From a virus (Duplodnaviria > Heunggongvirae > Uroviricota > Caudoviricetes): a stretch of DNA of 46,408 bases. The stretch lies in the IMG/VR virus record IMGVR_UViG_2740892219_000006; one strand, 5' to 3'. Shown piece after piece: positions 731 to 20,224 of this stretch (positions are counted from its first letter, which is position 1; the number at the start of each line of letters is the position of its first letter). The position numbers and the translations under genes were made by a program. The notes beneath the pieces are model-generated. The model saw nothing but the letters and a program-made list of their open reading frames with translations, was not told where the DNA came from and did not search any database.

Positions 731-780
731 TATGATTGTGGGTGTCTGGTTGGAAACTGACCAGATATGGAAACAAAAAG

Positions 781-806
781 CCCGCAGATAAATCTGCGGG
801 CTTCTT
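781..806 (-). terminator. Stem-loop with U-tract on the minus strand; possible terminator of a CopA-like antisense RNA
   Basis: GCCCGCAGA-TAAA-TCTGCGGGC hairpin; on the minus strand it is followed by CTTTTTGTTTCC; lies antisense to the repA leader as in IncFII copy control. Confidence 0.35.
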
Positions 807-897
807 GCGACATCCACGGAAAACCAACAACAATATCCATGGGCGCCTCGACAACTCCCATTATACGTTGGTTTTCCGTGGACGCAAGAGCGAACAT

Positions 898-1746
898 ATG
901 GATAGACCAATGCCGTCTCTACGTTCAGCTTACGTTTGTAATTTGTCGCCGGAGTTCCAGCCTCCAAAGCACCATACGCACAAGCTGCCGCTGGTGTTAT
1001 CTGATGCTTTACAGCGCATTAATGGGCGTGATCTTACGTGTGAGGTTGCGTTCTACGTTAATCAACCGTCAGAGCGGAAGCGCCGGATAAACGAGCATCG
1101 TCGTCGGGCGATTAATGCTGTGATCGCTGCGATTTTGCACCATGTAAACATCATTTCTAAGCGGGTTCTGGTTAGTGCTGAGGCGTTGGCTGATTTTTGC
1201 GGCCTGTCTACCGTATCCGAAGCTGGGAACAAGTCTATAACGCGCTGTACAAGGGCGTTGTCGCAACTGAAAGCGTTAGGTTTTATTGATTATGAACGTC
1301 GCTGGGATCGGGTGAATAAACAGTATTGGCCAGCGAAAATAGAGATTCGTGATCAACTGCTGGAAACCGTTGGTATTACTGAACAAGCATGGAGACGTGC
1401 GGTTAGCCAGAAACTTAATTACTTCAATGCGAAGAATAGCGAACGGCTTAAAAAAGCGATAACGGAGGCTGATTATAAGCGTATTGTTATTCAGGAGCAG
1501 ATGGAGAATGTATGGCGTCAGAGGAAGACGGCCAGAGAGATAAAGGCAAAACAGAAAGCAGCGGAGAGAGCTGCGCGTCTTGTTCGGGAAAAGGGAGAGG
1601 CCGAACTTCGTCATCAAATCACTAGAGAGGTTAGCCAGGAATTTGCTGATGGCATGTATCCTGGAGCTGACCTTGCATATTTACGATCCCTCGTTGAGCA
1701 GCGTTATAACAGGTTAAGAAAGACCTGGAAATCACTCCAACATTAA
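898..1746 (+). CDS. repA: Plasmid replication initiator RepA (IncFII RepA1-like)
   Basis: Translation contains SITRCTRALSQLKALGFIDYE and an HRRRAINAV block, recalled as matching IncFII RepA1 conserved regions; start placed at ATG 898 (about 283 aa) rather than the upstream alternative start of the ORF track. Confidence 0.75.
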   Translation: MDRPMPSLRSAYVCNLSPEFQPPKHHTHKLPLVLSDALQRINGRDLTCEVAFYVNQPSERKRRINEHRRRAINAVIAAILHHVNIISKRVLVSAEALADFCGLSTVSEAGNKSITRCTRALSQLKALGFIDYERRWDRVNKQYWPAKIEIRDQLLETVGITEQAWRRAVSQKLNYFNAKNSERLKKAITEADYKRIVIQEQMENVWRQRKTAREIKAKQKAAERAARLVREKGEAELRHQITREVSQEFADGMYPGADLAYLRSLVEQRYNRLRKTWKSLQH

Positions 1747-1749
1747 CCC

Positions 1750-2000
1750 TCCTGAATGATGAATCCGGTTTTACCGGAGGATTATCTACGTCGCAATAAA
1801 ATATCTGTTCAAAAAACAATCTGAATTAATTTTCTCTAAACCTGAACACAGCAAAAATATCGCCTTTACAGGCATCGGCTAATAAAGTTATCCACAGTTT
1901 TGATATGTATATGCAAATGGTTTTTTATAATAGATGCACTAAACAAATAAATGCAAAATCACTTTCTTTTATTAAGACTTTCTTTATTTAACTTACGCAG
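1750..2000. other. Putative plasmid replication origin: AT-rich tract with consensus DnaA box
   Basis: Strongly AT-rich region immediately downstream of repA; perfect TTATCCACA at 1888-1896. Confidence 0.45.
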
Positions 2001-2389
2001 GCTTTGCCTGTGAATATGTTCGCCCTTGCAGCGAGCTAAAGCTCGCGCCGGTTCGAGTCGCTACGCTCAAATATACCTCCTCCGGCACTTGCCGGAGGCA
2101 TGGAGCAGCCTGATCATCCTTTTCGAAACGGCGCGTTTCGAACTATACAAAATCAATTTATATAAGGCCGAAATAAGGCCTACGGCCGGGCTTTGCAGGA
2201 GGAAGGGGCGAGCCTTATCAATAAACGTCGATAAATACGCACACAGTAGCCATCAGAACGCGATAAAACGTAAGAAACATCATTTCCTATTAGACATAGA
2301 AAACTTATCTTATACGCAATGTAGTAAATTTCTATTGCCACATAGGAAAAGATTTCCTACCATCGTAGATATAATAAATGGAGATGGTT

Positions 2390-3890: not shown

Positions 3891-4173
3891 ACTTACCATT
3901 TTTGCGGTTTTTTTCGGACTTCATAAGCTGGCTAACGCGCCCTGGTGTGATATTTAACATGCGGCTTACTTCAGCTTGTGATCCTACTTCCTCTACTAGC
4001 GATGCAACATAGCGAGATTTTCCTGAGGAGGTTAATCCATTATATGTTGCTCGTGCGACTTTTCCCTGAGCTTCTCTCATATCAACTAATGCCTGAGCAA
4101 CCTGCTCAAAACCTTTAATTGTTACTTCTGTTAATGCTTGAATAGCATCAATTTCAGATTTTGGTTTAGCCAT
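3889..4173 (-). CDS. Small DNA-binding protein with C-terminal HTH
   Basis: 94 aa from ATG 4173 (GAGG RBS 8 nt upstream); C-terminal SRMLNITPGRVSQLMK resembles an HTH. Confidence 0.45.
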   Translation of the reverse strand: MAKPKSEIDAIQALTEVTIKGFEQVAQALVDMREAQGKVARATYNGLTSSGKSRYVASLVEEVGSQAEVSRMLNITPGRVSQLMKSEKNRKNGK

Positions 4174-4331
4174 TTGGTACCTCAAATTGTTTAAAATGTG
4201 TTAATTACAAAATTCAGCCGATACCATGTTCAATGGTATAGCATTGCTGAAATGTCTTTTTCAAGACCTTGCCAATAAGCTAAACAAAAATGTTTAATGC
4301 TTCGCCTAAAAAAACACCAGTCACTATTGTT

Positions 4332-4440
4332 TATATAATTATAGATTTATATAAAAAGTGCTTTACGGGTGGAAAAAAATTTCCTAAGGTTATACCCGAA
4401 ACCGAGCGATACCCGCCCTGGTTAAACCGGAGATAACCCG
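4332..4440 (+). promoter_or_regulatory. Conserved promoter/leader/RBS cassette, copy A (includes the AT-rich 22-bp motif)
   Basis: About 109 bp nearly identical to 14027-14134 and 21124-21233: AT-rich motif, TTTACG-N17-TAAGGT promoter-like hexamers, conserved leader and GGAG RBS directly before the ATG. Confidence 0.55.
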
Positions 4441-4821
4441 ATGAGCATGATTAAAATCCGCAAAAACGCTTTCCTTAAAATTCAAACTATCCTGGCTGGT
4501 TCTGTTGGCGTGATTTGCCGTTCTTCTTCAAGCCGCATCGATGACGGCTACGATGATGAGTATCGTGTGTCCTCGTGCGATGAGGCTTTAACCTGGCTGA
4601 AGGAGAATCAGGAACGTGCCCAGGTATATCTGGAAACAGAGAACGGCAATCAGATGCTGCGTATTAGCGGTCGTTATGGATTTGAAACTACATTCATGGC
4701 CTATTTTAATCAGGCTTACTTTGACAAGGAGTTGGCCTGGTACACTGATCGCATGAGCAAAAGCGAGCCAGCCCCGATTACACCGCCGAACAATAAACCA
4801 TTTTTATTCCTCGTTAAGTAA
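4441..4821 (+). CDS. Hypothetical protein (126 aa)
   Basis: ORF directly driven by cassette A; no recognised domain. Confidence 0.5.
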   Translation: MSMIKIRKNAFLKIQTILAGSVGVICRSSSSRIDDGYDDEYRVSSCDEALTWLKENQERAQVYLETENGNQMLRISGRYGFETTFMAYFNQAYFDKELAWYTDRMSKSEPAPITPPNNKPFLFLVK

Positions 4822-4884
4822 ACACAATGCGTAAAGTGTCATTTTGACACTTTGCGAGTGTTAATATTGTGCGAGGAGGGTGCT

Positions 4885-5157
4885 ATGACGGGTTATGAAT
4901 TGAAATTATGGCGTCGTGGGATGAACTGGACGCAGGAGCGAGCCGCCGAAGAATTTGGGATATCGTTGGCTACATATAAGCGATATGAGAAGGGGGAGCC
5001 GCCGAGGGTCATTGAGATGGCCATTCGCGTTCTGTCGTTTGACGATATGGTGAAGGATCTTTCACACCTTGATAAAGACGCGATTCTGTTAAGGCTGCAA
5101 ACCCTTGTATGGGAAAAGGTTAAAGTGTCGTCAGAATTGGAACAAGGGATCAAATGA
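4885..5157 (+). CDS. XRE-family HTH protein
   Basis: HTH-like LKLWRRGMNWTQERAAEEFGISLATYKRYE; GAGGAGGG RBS before ATG 4885. Confidence 0.5.
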   Translation: MTGYELKLWRRGMNWTQERAAEEFGISLATYKRYEKGEPPRVIEMAIRVLSFDDMVKDLSHLDKDAILLRLQTLVWEKVKVSSELEQGIK

Positions 5158-5205
5158 TCCTTTACGGATCGTTTTATGGTGGTGTAATGTAAGCGCCAGA
5201 AAGAC

Positions 5206-5231
5206 AAAAACCGCCTTGCCGGGCGGTTTTC
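5206..5231 (+). terminator. Intrinsic terminator-like hairpin
   Basis: AAAACCGCC-TTGCCG-GGCGGTTTT immediately after the 4885-5157 gene. Confidence 0.5.
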
Positions 5232-5924
5232 AGTCTGAAATTTAAATCTTGCTTGGTAGGCTGGATTTAAAAAGACACCTCTTGATTGGGGCGGCTTTCT
5301 TGCGTCTAAAGATAATCAAATCTTTTTGCGCCTGCAACCCCTTTTTTACTGGTGCCCATTTCAGACTCACGCTCGCGTCGTTGTCTTTGCCACTTCGTTG
5401 GGTTCGGTGTTTTTGGGCGAAGTGGCGCGCGGGTATGCGTACAAGGGGAAAGTGTGCTGACGCAAGCCAGGAACAGCGATCTAAACTAAGTCGAGTCTGA
5501 GAAAGGCAGGAGTGCGACAACTCGCCTGTGCTCTATGAGCAGAAGAAGGTATATCAGACGACCAATGGCATGATTGTGGGCCACAGGGCGCACACGGCGG
5601 CGAAGCATTGGAAACGATGTGGAGCTATCTGGTGGCATGAGTTCCGGTACTCGATCTCGAGCTTTTTTTGATGCTTTTGAGAAGGGGCCGGAACTCCGGT
5701 AAAGGGCACCCTGTATGGGGGGAGGGGGGGGTGTGTCTGAAGGGTGGTTATCGGTTATGGTGGAATTATGATGCGTAGAAAAGCGAGTTTGCTGCAAGCT
5801 ATTGGGTCCATTATTTCTTTGTTTCCGGCAGTTGATCATTTTCGTCATATGGCGACGCGTTCCAGTATGGGCTTGGCGCGTGATGCTGACGCTATTCGAA
5901 AGGATTTTCAGAACGTCTCTGGCG

Positions 5925-5962
5925 TTGATAAGAGAGAAAAGAGTAAGGGGCCGTAGCCCCTT
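5925..5962 (-). terminator. Intrinsic terminator downstream of the antirepressor gene (minus strand)
   Basis: AAGGGGC-CGTA-GCCCCTT hairpin followed on the minus strand by CTCTTTTCTCTCTT. Confidence 0.6.
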
Positions 5963-5966
5963 GTAG

Positions 5967-7112
5967 TTATGGTCTGCTTTTCTGTGCCAGCTTATCAGCA
6001 CATGTTTTTATCAGATCCTGTAGTGTCCTGGCTGGCAGGTTTGCATCCAGAACGCTGAGTATGCTGTTGTGATCAGCCTGGTCGACTACTTTGCCTGTCG
6101 GTGGTAGTAGCTTGAGCTGAGGATTCAGGTTTTCGTCAAAGCTGATAAGTGCTCTGGCGTTTCTGAGCAGATCAAGAAGTAAGGCTGATATCACATTTTC
6201 CTGAGTCATTGCTGGCAGATTTAGCGTCGCTTTGGTTTTCCCTGTTGCCTTGTCAAACTCCTTGATTAGTTCCTTCCTGTAGTTCGGTTCCGTTAATAGC
6301 CGATTATGCTCTGTTGCCGCGCGGATAATCGTTTTTTCCTGGTACAGTCGTTTAGCCAGATCGCGCTCGTACTGTGTTTTTAACACGCTGCTGATAGCGT
6401 TAAAGGCTTCAATGTAGGCCAGCTTGATATCCTTCACGCCTGGGCCGTCGATACTTTCCATGAGCAAGGTAAATCCGTCTTTTGTCATGCGATAGATTGT
6501 TATTTCGCGGTCGCTTCCTTCCAGCGGTCGTTGCTCTTTAAAGAAATGACGTGCCGCAGCCGTGCGAGGAATGCGTAGCGCATCGATGGCCATAACGATG
6601 GAATTGTTTGTGGTGCTGAATGCCTGGGCAACATCGGCTGAGGTTGTGAGTGGCTCGTTGTTGCACACCTTAATGTAAAACATCGGTTTGGCGTTGAGCG
6701 TATCGACAACCTCACGAGCATTGTTTGGCGAGACGGTAACGGTCGCGGCCGTTTGCGCGTTCTGGTTGAAGTAGCAGTCTTCCAGCCGTTCGAACACATC
6801 CCACGCTTGGTTAGTTTCAAGCATTTTGGCGTGACGTGCAGCCCCGCGTTCTGTCCAGAGGATGAGGGAGCGGACTTTAGGTGAAACTGGATTTTGTGAG
6901 TAGTTTAAAGCTACCCGCAATTCTTTAAGGTCATTACCAACAACTTTGAAAAAGTGTTTCCCTTCAACGAAACGTACTTTGTTCTCATGATGATTCTGGC
7001 GAATACGCACCGGCTCAGTGCCGTAAAGCTGTGCCAGTAACTCGGTAGTAATGACAGGGATTTGGTTATGCAGGATAGGCTGTAGGGTGTTAACGGTCGG
7101 AAGCGTTTTCAT
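5967..7112 (-). CDS. Phage antirepressor (ORF6N-type N-terminal domain plus Rha-like domain)
   Basis: 381 aa; N-terminal ELLAQLYGTEPVRIRQNHHENKVRFVEGKHFF is recalled as ORF6N/Ant-like; central region ITIYRMTKDGFTLLMESIDGPG..IKLAYIEAFN is recalled as Rha-like. Confidence 0.7.
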   Translation of the reverse strand: MKTLPTVNTLQPILHNQIPVITTELLAQLYGTEPVRIRQNHHENKVRFVEGKHFFKVVGNDLKELRVALNYSQNPVSPKVRSLILWTERGAARHAKMLETNQAWDVFERLEDCYFNQNAQTAATVTVSPNNAREVVDTLNAKPMFYIKVCNNEPLTTSADVAQAFSTTNNSIVMAIDALRIPRTAAARHFFKEQRPLEGSDREITIYRMTKDGFTLLMESIDGPGVKDIKLAYIEAFNAISSVLKTQYERDLAKRLYQEKTIIRAATEHNRLLTEPNYRKELIKEFDKATGKTKATLNLPAMTQENVISALLLDLLRNARALISFDENLNPQLKLLPPTGKVVDQADHNSILSVLDANLPARTLQDLIKTCADKLAQKSRP

Positions 7113-7300: not shown

Positions 7301-7594
7301 TGTGATATCTCCGATTAAAGGAACTATCACCACCAATGACGCCAATCAATATGGTGGTGAGACGTACAGGGTTGGCGTAACCGGCACAATGACAAACCCG
7401 GCGCGGATTTCTCCGCCCCCGCACGCCCCACCATAATTTGGGTGTAGCAGTGCTTTACGCATAAAAAAACCGCTAACGCGGTATGCGCCATTGTGCAATC
7501 GGGACGCCAATCCCGACCGTAGATTTTGCTACGGCTCGGAAAGTGTCCACCAATGGCGCATTCATGTCAATACGGCGGGATTTTAACAGAGACA

Positions 7595-8442: not shown

Positions 8443-8847
8443 GGACGGTTCTTTCGTGCTGATCGGATTCGCGGTCCTTTCAGCATTACGTTGTTGTATA
8501 AACAACCACGCAAGCACAAGCAGCAAGTTGATTTTACCCAAAAGGTAATAATAGTCCACTATTATGCTTCAAAAAATTGTGGTTCTTGTTGTGTCTGCAA
8601 ACTCACAGATTGTGGGTAGGTTACTGATTTTGTGAAAATAAACTGGTTTTTTCGTTTAATTTATTTCCTATTACTAATCTTAAAATAATCGTAAAATACC
8701 TGTGGACCTTCCCGCCGATTCGCACCCGGGCACCGACTTTAGGGGAGGATTTCCTGTTGCCGTACATGCAAGCACAAGCAGCCGTGCTTGCTCTCGCGTT
8801 GTTTTCGTCGGTGGGGATGCCGTGAAACGGCCTGTAAGGGCCATACA

Positions 8848-8970
8848 ATGAAAAAATACTGTATGTGTATTTTTATCGTTGTTACTGGGGCTTTGTTTAC
8901 GCCACATGGGGAGGGTTGGAAGATTACTGATAACGCTCTGAATGTGACGATAAACATTAGCAGCAAGTAG
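8848..8970 (+). CDS. Possible small hydrophobic peptide (40 aa)
   Basis: MKKYCMCIFIVVTGALFT signal-like N-terminus; immediately followed by a strong terminator; weak RBS. Confidence 0.25.
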   Translation: MKKYCMCIFIVVTGALFTPHGEGWKITDNALNVTINISSK

Positions 8971-8975
8971 CGATT

Positions 8976-8998
8976 AGGCCCCTTCGGGGGCCTTTTTT
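8976..8998 (+). terminator. Rho-independent terminator
   Basis: AGGCCCC-TTCG-GGGGCCT followed by TTTTTT. Confidence 0.7.
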
Positions 8999-17030: not shown

Positions 17031-17546
17031 ATGGCGTTAACACACCGCGAACTCTGTCAGATTGCGTACAAGTTCCTTAAGCGCAACGGGTTCAAGGTTT
17101 GCTTTCATGACCGCTTTATAGCTGTAACCAGTACCGGAGAACAGCCAGATGCTATGGGATTCAGAAATTCAGCATCATGCCTGATAGAGGCAAAGTGTTC
17201 TCGTGCTGACTTGTTGGCAGATAGAAAAAAGCGTTTCCGTAAAAATCCCTCACTTGGCATGGGCGACTGGCGATTCTTTATTAGTGAGCCGGGAATTATT
17301 TCAGTTGAGGATTTACCTCCCGGCTGGGGATTACTTCACGTTGTTAACGGAAGAGTACGGAAAGTACATGGGTGGCCCAAGGGAAATTGCTGTTGGGGTA
17401 ATCCTGACGATAAGCCATTTACTGGAAATAAGCAGGTTGAATGCGATTACATGTTATCTGCATTAAGGCGCATGGAGTTGAGAGGGCACCTTAATGAAAT
17501 ATATGACGGTGTAATTGTTAATAAGAAAGAAGGAAACGCGGCATGA
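17031..17546 (+). CDS. Putative PD-(D/E)XK-family nuclease
   Basis: AAGGAG RBS before ATG 17031; motif PDAMGF...CLIEAKCSRAD is compatible with a D...E.K nuclease core. Confidence 0.4.
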   Translation: MALTHRELCQIAYKFLKRNGFKVCFHDRFIAVTSTGEQPDAMGFRNSASCLIEAKCSRADLLADRKKRFRKNPSLGMGDWRFFISEPGIISVEDLPPGWGLLHVVNGRVRKVHGWPKGNCCWGNPDDKPFTGNKQVECDYMLSALRRMELRGHLNEIYDGVIVNKKEGNAA

Positions 17547-17986
17547 TTACTATTACCAAAGAGCGACTACTGACAATCAAGCAGTGGCGCGAAACATACG
17601 GACCTAGTAGCAACGTTGTACTGCCAGCAGAAGAAGCGGAAGAACTGGCACGAATTGCTCTGGCAGCGCTGGAAGTCGAGCCGGTTGCAGTAAACGACGA
17701 CATGGCTTACGCATTCCATCACGCATTGTCAGATTCATCGCTAGGCGCTGATGAAGTAGAGGAAATTAAGGCCGGTTTGCGTGCTGCCTTTGCCAACGTC
17801 ACTATCCAACCAGAGCCGGTAGTGCCGGATGATGGTCGCGAAAAGTTCGAAGCACTTGTCAGGTTTCATGCGGGTGATAAAGACCATGAAACATTATTGC
17901 TTCGTGCCAACGAAGGGATGAATTACCAGGACCCGAATGTTGATCTGGCGTGGATATTCTGGAAGTCCAGTCGTGAACATATATAA
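17543..17986 (+). CDS. Hypothetical acidic protein (147 aa)
   Basis: Start overlaps the upstream stop; no recognised domain. Confidence 0.45.
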   Translation: MITITKERLLTIKQWRETYGPSSNVVLPAEEAEELARIALAALEVEPVAVNDDMAYAFHHALSDSSLGADEVEEIKAGLRAAFANVTIQPEPVVPDDGREKFEALVRFHAGDKDHETLLLRANEGMNYQDPNVDLAWIFWKSSREHI

Positions 17987-20148: not shown

Positions 20149-20224
20149 GGCCCCTTAGCTCAGTGGTTAGAGCAGGCGACTCATAATCGCACGGTCATCG
20201 GTTCAAATCCGGTAGGGGCCACCA
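20149..20224 (+). tRNA. tRNA with CAU anticodon (Met or lysidine-dependent Ile2 type), 3-prime CCA encoded
   Basis: Manually folded cloverleaf: 7-bp acceptor GGCCCCT/AGGGGCC, D-stem GCTC/GAGC, anticodon loop CTCATAA, T-stem ATCGG/CCGGT with TTCAAAT loop; the 5-prime half resembles the E. coli Ile2 tRNA from memory. Confidence 0.85.

Follow-up and report, generated by a model that had tools for sequence, protein, structure and literature searches.

A conserved, structured non-coding element of a RepA phage-plasmid and its possible role as an RNA-primed second origin

What does a phage-plasmid keep in a stretch of about 0.8 kb that appears to hold no gene? The question arises at positions 5160-5966 of IMG/VR record IMGVR_UViG_2740892219_000006, a sequence of 46,408 nucleotides (nt) that was analysed at its full length and is called the window here; it represents a ~48 kb RepA phage-plasmid and is near-identical to a plasmid of Escherichia coli ATCC 25922. 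The first-pass annotation had described these positions as lacking a credible gene, a description that stands for 5158-5767, where no gene was found, and fails for 5768-5956, where a 62-amino-acid (62-aa) gene is plausible. Our answer for the gene-free part is graded. The segment from about 5158 to 5745, called the block below, is very probably a selected, structured, non-coding element of the + strand. Its function is a more tentative matter, and to the reading that we prefer, in which the block is a ColE1-like pre-primer/antisense pair forming a second, possibly lytic, origin of replication, we would give a probability of roughly 0.35.

The block is present in 62 of the 62 plasmids of its family in PLSDB (58 from Escherichia, three from Salmonella and one from Klebsiella, the same count and genera as were obtained with terminase matches), and a blastn search (word size 11) against 72,556 plasmids returned 62 phage-plasmids only. 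From plasmids, viral contigs, metagenomes and read assemblies, 27 distinct versions of the block were gathered, which fall into one group of ~99% identity and seven lineages at 87-90% (from Salmonella, Citrobacter, Yokenella, Klebsiella aerogenes and metagenomes). Between lineages, the flanking coding DNA is only 50-80% identical (50-nt bins), and in the same lineage pairs the terminase is 77-79% and the adjacent helix-turn-helix (HTH) protein 68-76% identical, compared with 87-90% for the block, which is therefore regarded as an island of conservation (5180-5745). The C4/isrK RNA region of the window, at 86.7%, is comparable. In all lineages the homology ends at 5742-5748, ~14 nt past a G-rich tract. 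The distribution is that of one phage-plasmid family, and no more distant relatives were found in any collection searched. These searches were exact-pattern scans (five patterns for the viral contigs) of viral contigs, one genome per species and metagenomes, with hits checked by nhmmer; the real matches were same-family copies of at least 87% identity, and the others were judged by nhmmer to be due to chance. A route through the neighbouring HTH gene led to relatives of at most 57% identity that lie in unrelated contexts, without the block. A 9-nt direct repeat, TTATGGTGG, at 5174 and 5755 was of chance level and is missing from relatives with no accessory gene directly after the block.

Selection on a protein does not account for this conservation. 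The 114 variable sites in 5233-5745 are split 39/38/37 over the three codon phases, the indels between lineages in the block all measure 1, 22 or 50 nt, and every frame of 5233-5745 contains 3-7 stops. None of the relatives carries an open reading frame (ORF) in the block that is intact or conserved across lineages, which is the outcome of the comparison with related genomes that the first-pass annotation had proposed, and the 27 distinct copies have no frame in common. The absence of codon periodicity, the frame-shifting indels and the lack of an intact ORF thus lead us to reject the suggestion of a decayed gene, and the block is moreover better conserved than the adjacent genes. A 171-aa minus-strand ORF at 5486-6001 has a PPPPP run that is read off the G tract, as had been recognised when it was first set aside as a poly-Pro artefact.

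A structured RNA, by contrast, is well supported. In a consensus fold derived from a 16-sequence alignment (A2), which comprises 171 pairs with 99.3% of cells paired, double compensatory changes occur at 10 pairs, a number reached in 0 of 500 column shuffles and compared with 0-3 in six slid controls; about twenty additional pairs vary on one side only, via G-U. The strand can be told from the same alignment, as the consensus fold energy is -325 for the + strand vs. -258 for the minus strand, and the + strand model leaves 799 of 853 variable cells paired when read as + RNA, compared with 550 of 853 when read as minus RNA, while the minus-strand model is almost equally satisfied by either strand. 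The G-U wobbles favour a + strand RNA. The conservation island, the compensatory changes and this wobble bias together support a non-coding RNA locus, one of several possibilities raised by the first-pass annotation. The element and its principal parts are as follows.

5198-5745, + strand: structured non-coding RNA element of ~550 nt, identified by conservation, covariation and the strand test, with a minimum free energy of -207.9 kcal/mol (z = -3.0)
5389-5426, + strand: hairpin A (GCCACTTCG...CGAAGTGGC), with two-sided changes at 5 of 13 pairs and 97.9% of cells paired (helix 11)
5426-5477, + strand: near-invariant, purine-rich stretch of ~50 nt (GTACAAGGGGAAAGTGTGCTGACGCAAGCCAGGAACAGC), about 270-320 nt before the end of the block
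5605-5620, + strand: hairpin with an invariant GAAA tetraloop, in which 3 of 6 pairs are doubly compensated (A-U/G-C, U-A/C-G and C-G/U-A; helix 19)
5639-5696, + strand: long hairpin of 21 pairs that includes CCGGAACTCCGG, with five one-sided G-U variants and 99.4% of cells paired (helix 20)
5717-5731, + strand: G6AG8 tract, unique in the window, with conservation ending ~14 nt further on, at about 5745

The helices with the strongest support are those of hairpin A, of the GAAA-capped hairpin and of the upper stem at 5241-5270. Hairpin A had been noticed earlier as an inverted repeat, and its arms are indeed present at 5389-5397 and 5418-5426 (inverted repeat I15). The palindrome CCGGAACTCCGG, also listed then, is found at 5688-5699, although its relevant partner is GAGTTCCGG at 5639-5647 (inverted repeat I16). 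In the loop of the long hairpin, a T7 run (5657-5663) varies from T6 to T8 among lineages through 1-nt indels (5662/5663) and is more variable than the G tract. The purine-rich stretch, part of a core that spans 5300-5716, lies in a bin (5430-5479) that is 98% identical in five of five cross-lineage pairs.

The G6AG8 tract itself is real, occurring once in the window with 0 expected by chance, and lies at 5717-5731 rather than at the 5718-5733 given originally. Across 36 copies of the block, the first G6 run and the A are constant, and the second run is G7 in 30, G8 in five, G6 in one and interrupted in one (the metagenome copy L047). The difference between G8 and G7 is a T-to-G substitution that keeps the length, such that the total tract length is equal in 33 of the 36 copies. 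Examined as a phase-variable homopolymer locus, the tract was not freely variable in length and had neither an ORF nor a promoter spacer as its context; its constant length and the substitution behind G8/G7 make it unlike contingency loci, and the earlier idea of a slipped-strand switch is not sustained.

A search of the whole window against Rfam 15 at gathering thresholds, the covariance-model check suggested in the first-pass annotation, found ryfA, C4, isrK and a tRNA only, none of them in the block, and relaxing the threshold to E ≤10 for 4800-6300 and for the Salmonella copy gave nothing credible. No curated family exists for the RNA, and none of the records examined annotates it. The type of system to which we would assign it, a structured RNA under cis-antisense control that may be an RNA-primed origin, is already known. 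Within the window, possible trans targets of the + RNA were limited to chance-level complementarity of 11-14 nt, and iterons or tandem repeats in 5100-6050 to short, chance-level repeats. An iteron-type origin at the block was rejected, a DnaA box and an AT-rich region being located instead downstream of repA; a role as a CsrA sponge was also rejected, as the GGA count is, by eye, about that expected from composition.

The 5' end of the block differs in character from the rest and contains the features listed below; promoters were ranked with a home-made sigma-70 matrix, as percentiles within the window.

5161-5188, + strand: candidate promoter of the + RNA, TTTACG-16 nt-TGTAAT, with an inferred start near 5195-5198
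5205-5232, both strands: stem-loop 1, a bidirectional terminator hairpin (inverted repeat I12) with the better U tract on the minus strand, for which the terminator scan scores it
5241-5270, + strand: stem-loop 2, a hypervariable hairpin in the least conserved 50-nt bin of the block
5271-5298, + strand: stem-loop 3, with an invariant stem and a 6-nt loop that reads TTGATT, TCAATT, TTAAAT or TTGAAT (A2 columns 126-131)
5200-5302, minus strand: predicted antisense RNA of ~100 nt with three stem-loops and a terminator, proposed from folds, the terminator scan and the promoter score
5337-5309, minus strand: candidate antisense promoter, TTGCAG (5337-5332), 17 nt, TATCTT (5314-5309), the top minus-strand score in 5250-5500 (99.97 percentile)

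The + strand candidate, although weak, has the top score on its strand in 5100-5400 (99.93 percentile) and lies within an invariant stretch (5158-5204); its hexamers are fixed in the 16 sequences, with substitutions confined to the spacer (5176-5179). Likewise, the hexamers of the antisense candidate are invariant, and its two substitutions (5321 and 5328) both fall in the spacer. Stem-loop 1, which is also the terminator of the HTH gene, is 96-100% conserved with a loop of TTGCCG or TTGCAG. Around stem-loop 2, bin 5230-5279 drops to 74-76% identity compared with 92-100% in its two neighbours, and yet stem-loop 2 folds as a hairpin on both strands in every lineage, with pair 5252/5259 of its upper stem being C-G in nine sequences and U-A in seven (helix 6). 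In four lineages, the minus strand from 5305 to 5198 is predicted to fold alike, into the same three stem-loops (z about -3). Differences among lineages are thus located, at the 5' end, in loops and in the middle hairpin, whereas the rest of the block shows the opposite, namely covarying stems and fixed loops. Terminator-like hairpins had been reported on both sides of the locus, and the terminator scan recovers them at 5205-5232 and 5945-5965. Because the convergent antirepressor operon has its own terminator (5962-5945), the minus-strand terminator at 5232-5205 implies minus-strand transcription that starts within the block.

An origin-like element, another possibility listed in the first-pass annotation, is compatible with this anatomy. 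An RNA of ~550 nt, three 5' stem-loops, a predicted convergent antisense RNA and a G run together resemble the layout of ColE1, and we therefore propose a pre-primer mechanism. The long, highly folded and untranslated + RNA of about 5198-5745 would serve as the pre-primer; its G tract would stay paired with the template as a very stable rG:dC hybrid (a persistent R-loop), this hybrid would be processed to give a 3' end, and from that end host DNA polymerase would begin rightward synthesis near 5745. The short antisense RNA may kiss the three 5' hairpins of the nascent + RNA and divert its folding, for example such that CAACCCCUUUUUU (5336-5348) sequesters the G tract, and kissing would in this way set both initiation frequency and lineage specificity. 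As a complete RepA/oriR replicon is located elsewhere in the window (736-2200), the block would be a second origin, and as no lytic replication proteins were recognisable in the annotation of the phage-plasmid, lytic or induced replication is a plausible use. A fuller version of this proposal would make the block a protein-independent, RNA-primed origin on a CSB II-like G6AG8 R-loop tract, under antisense copy control and without sequence relation to ColE1, which probably serves lytic or induced replication of a RepA phage-plasmid and whose hypervariable kissing hairpins define replication-specificity groups among phage-plasmids that co-circulate in E. coli, Salmonella, Klebsiella and Citrobacter; this version is put forward as a possibility that we hold to be rather unlikely in its entirety.

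The RepA replicon itself has several recognisable parts. Downstream of repA (1760-2200), an AT-rich region (1790-2000) with a consensus DnaA box, TTATCCACA, at 1888-1896 is followed by four GC-rich hairpins at about 2031-2190, and the whole has the appearance of an IncFII-type oriR that includes a single-strand priming site. A CopA-like RNA upstream of repA was not detected by Rfam.

A number of observations weigh against an RNA-primed origin at the block. The RepA replicon, with its DnaA box and AT-rich region, makes a second origin unnecessary for maintenance. The covariation comes from only about seven divergent lineages, and the structure that it supports was derived from the same alignment; as the long-range helices, the G tract and its C/U-rich partner are invariant, their pairing is without covariation support. 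Two metagenome copies have internal deletions, of 50 nt in L047 (5386-5435 in window equivalents, which removes hairpin A) and of 22 nt in L060 (5489-5510), so these copies are either defective or able to do without the deleted parts. Where stems are conserved and loops vary, the loops may equally be unconstrained. Both promoter candidates are weak, as their percentile ranks leave more than 100 equal sites in the window, and a stricter consensus promoter scan found none in 4700-6200. No homology to the ColE1, pMB1 or p15A origins was found by blastn, and the best that nhmmer returned with the block profile against ColE1 was E = 6.8 in an unrelated region. Finally, the Rfam RNAI model (RF00106, gathering threshold 47 bits) scored 18.1 bits on the minus strand of the window at 5204-5277 and 15-17 bits on either strand of relative L004, and these sub-threshold scores are driven by the generic terminator hairpin.

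Among the alternatives, the one that survives best is a stand-alone, large structured RNA of ~450-570 nt, transcribed from its own or the HTH promoter to the terminator at 5945-5965, with a function other than replication, for example in binding a host or phage protein, in lysogeny control, or in defence or counter-defence, with the 5' hairpins and the antisense RNA serving only to tune its level. We consider this possible, though doubtful. The structural and conservation evidence fits it equally, a discrete transcription unit is provided in relatives without downstream cargo by a terminator ~8 nt past the G tract (the equivalent of 5945-5965; alignment A1, rows EcO145 and SalWeltev), and the GAAA tetraloop and long single-stranded stretches, all of them invariant, hint at tertiary contacts or a ligand. 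The locus, moreover, lies in an RNA-rich regulatory region beside C4, isrK and ryfA. Such an RNA nevertheless matches no Rfam family and has no complementary target in the window, its restriction to one phage-plasmid family offers no independent functional clue, and it leaves unexplained why conservation ends so abruptly just past the G-rich tract.

The slot that follows the G tract bears on a second alternative. It holds the 62-aa ORF, a two-helix membrane protein of phrog_23465 with 211-218 aa, or no gene at all before the common terminator.

5768-5956, + strand: optional 62-aa gene (accessory cargo) with a GGTGGA ribosome-binding site; RefSeq and GenBank relatives list its product as a hypothetical protein
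5945-5965, both strands: bidirectional terminator (terminator scan), common to the convergent antirepressor gene (7112-5967, minus strand)

That 5768-5956 is a small accessory gene is plausible, as copies of the ORF show no indels and 6 of 9 distinct substitutions fall at codon position 3; its homologs were found only at 93% identity or above. The phrog_23465 cargo, seen in relatives L004 (3054-3698), L006 (3059-3694) and L017 (1480-2136), has two N-terminal hydrophobic helices and occupies what resembles a moron slot. The block might accordingly be imagined as a regulatory leader (5' untranslated region) with antisense control of this cargo, in the manner of a type I toxin-antitoxin system or a moron. 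In its favour, the cargo genes follow the block immediately and in the same orientation, no promoter of their own is recognisable, the proteins that they encode have hydrophobic N-terminal segments, and a cis-antisense RNA with a highly folded mRNA is a hok/sok-type layout. However, many family members are free of cargo (L005, L007 and L018, for instance) with the block equally conserved, one leader would be common to three unrelated cargo states, and the block contains no conserved small ORF for a hydrophobic toxin, the downstream ORFs being optional. We regard a leader as unlikely.

Less likely again is an element that acts as DNA, through hairpins of the single-stranded + strand or through protein sites, as a signal for single-strand initiation, recombination and multimer resolution, or packaging. 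Because single-stranded DNA also tolerates G-T wobbles, covariation by itself does not distinguish it from RNA, but the ~500 nt of continuous structure far exceed known ssi, cer and pac sites, no iterons or repeated protein sites are present, the hairpin cluster at 2030-2200 could already be the priming site of the RepA replicon, and the terminase genes are 20 kb away. A 9-mer at 5436-5444, TGCGTACAA, agrees with 9 of 11 bases of the XerC arm of cer; by eye it has no XerD arm, and a Xer/cer site was rejected.

A still smaller chance is assigned to the antisense RNA being an OOP-like regulator of the upstream HTH mRNA, as in lambda cII/oop, with the remainder of the block as an unrelated conserved element. 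The arrangement is suggestive, in that a gene for a ~90-aa HTH protein is followed by a predicted convergent RNA of ~100 nt that has its terminator hairpin in common with the 3' end of the gene. Yet the predicted antisense RNA ends ~43 nt past the stop codon, clear of the coding sequence, and 440 nt of structured region would be left unexplained. Last, a decayed gene or a switch at the G tract is highly improbable on the coding and tract data given above and on conservation that exceeds that of real genes, even though low-complexity ORFs span the region and 3 of the 36 copies depart from the others in the length of the second G run.

The surroundings of the block are those of a temperate phage-plasmid. 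Of 5,426 complete E. coli genomes, 72 contain a plasmid that matches the window at 98-99.6% identity, among them the quality-control strain ATCC 25922 (plasmid NZ_CP009073.1, with the block at about 17,079-17,625). Three Yersinia pestis phages match it in the same range, Y. pestis being a further host that the family infects. Its gene content includes an IncFII-type RepA, ParA, a HigB/HigA pair, a P1-like C4-icd-antirepressor module, lysis genes and a P2-like tail. The nearest gene upstream is the following.

4885-5157, + strand: XRE/HTH_3 gene of 90 aa (Pfam HTH_3; PHROG 6962), always directly 5' of the block

Its promoter, scored with TTGACA at 4844, is overlapped by a palindrome, AAAGTGTCATTTTGACACTTT, at 4833-4853, which is a perfect 9-3-9 and occurs once in the window; this is probably the autoregulatory operator of the HTH protein. 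As the palindrome is found only there, an operator for this protein within the block was rejected. Between a 126-aa gene and the HTH gene, phages vB_YpM_41 (L001, locus 4023-4408) and vB_YpM_44 carry ~323 bp extra, at a position equivalent to about 4822-4884 of the window, that is present in neither the window nor vB_YpM_39; p853EC2 (L006) has a divergent 141-aa gene and a different HTH allele at this position. The block itself is unchanged in vB_YpM_41, vB_YpM_44, vB_YpM_39 and p853EC2, whatever sits 5' of the HTH gene.

On the other side, Rfam places a tandem of C4 antisense RNA (72 bits) and isrK RNA (67 bits) at 7350-7535 on the minus strand, upstream of a 78-aa icd-like ORF (7345-7109) and the ORF6N/Rha antirepressor (7112-5967, minus strand). 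C4, isrK, the icd-like ORF and the antirepressor are, by sequence, a P1 immI-like module convergent with the block. Farther along, a full-length match to ryfA RNA at 8702-8998 (+ strand; 143 bits, E = 7e-37) is probably a type I toxin-antitoxin-like locus on the phage-plasmid, and a tRNA gene at 20149-20221 (+ strand, 67 bits), which the ATCC 25922 plasmid annotation calls tRNA-Ile, separates the lysis genes from a methyltransferase gene.

A natural deletion derivative is also available. pCREC-544_3 (L069, NZ_CP024829.1) is a 32 kb circle without parA, the CI-like repressor, the early genes and the lysis genes, which retains repA, higBA, the HTH gene, the block, with a G tract one G shorter (G6AG6), and the antirepressor module. 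As it keeps both repA and the block, it does not discriminate between the two as replicon. A 31 kb record considered as another such derivative was rejected as a partial assembly. Yersinia phage HQ103, which has been described as a temperature-switched pseudolysogen (PMC11177050), was rejected as a relative, being a different, 32 kb phage.

Should the block prove to be an RNA-primed origin, it would explain how phage-plasmids without recognisable lytic replication proteins are amplified, add to the mycobacteriophages a second case in which a prophage replicates by an RNA-based route, and offer a new compatible replicon together with a natural incompatibility code. Otherwise, it would be a new large structured RNA, supported by covariation and in a genetically tractable host. 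In either case, the best-conserved non-structural segment of this phage-plasmid family is an unannotated RNA element of 0.5 kb.

Several known systems invite comparison. GOLLD and ROOL RNAs resemble the block in their length of several hundred nt, their intricate folds and their carriage by temperate phages; the block differs in its much narrower distribution and its predicted cis-antisense module, and it matched neither model at E ≤10. In mitochondria, conserved sequence block II (CSB II) is a G6AG7-8-type tract at the heavy-strand origin, which forms a stable RNA-DNA hybrid or G-quadruplex and yields the replication primer. The block has a near-identical G6AG7-8 run, which occupies the non-template strand at the 3' end of a putative non-coding RNA, although the system and polymerase are wholly unrelated and a single sequence motif is what the two have in common.

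Phage P1, like this phage-plasmid, combines a RepA plasmid replicon with a C4 antisense RNA 5' of an icd-like and an antirepressor gene, which here lie beside the block, and by analogy with its two-origin design (oriR and oriL) a separate lytic origin would be expected. The oriL of P1, in contrast, lies inside repL and requires RepL, whereas the block is non-coding and no repL-like gene was recognised in the window. A precedent for an RNA-based origin is offered by the extrachromosomal mycobacterial prophages, in which the replication region expresses a non-coding RNA and does not rely on a Rep protein (Wetzel et al., 2020; PMC7157519). These too are plasmid-like prophages, and an RNA-based replication region is what we hypothesise for the present family; they differ in their hosts and in being without repA, which the phage-plasmids possess.

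The comparison that shaped our reading is with ColE1, from which the block differs in having no Rop gene, in its weak promoters and in sharing its 48 kb phage-plasmid with a RepA replicon. The likeness is one of layout. In the ColE1 record, a G6 run is found 25 nt before the origin and a second G6 at -272, and RNA I starts ~106 nt after the start of RNA II. Both systems would have an untranslated RNA of ~550 nt of which the first ~100 nt form three stem-loops, as predicted for the block, and a convergent antisense RNA of ~100 nt, also with three stem-loops, that terminates near the start of the long RNA, for which folds, the terminator and candidate promoters speak in the block. In both, a G run lies ~15-25 nt before the end of the element; the G6AG8 tract of the block ends 14 nt before conservation stops, the putative transition point being placed by the end of homology. 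A second G-rich stretch ~270-300 nt upstream has its counterpart in the invariant, GGGG-containing purine stretch at about -300, and in both systems the differences among lineages are concentrated in hairpin loops.

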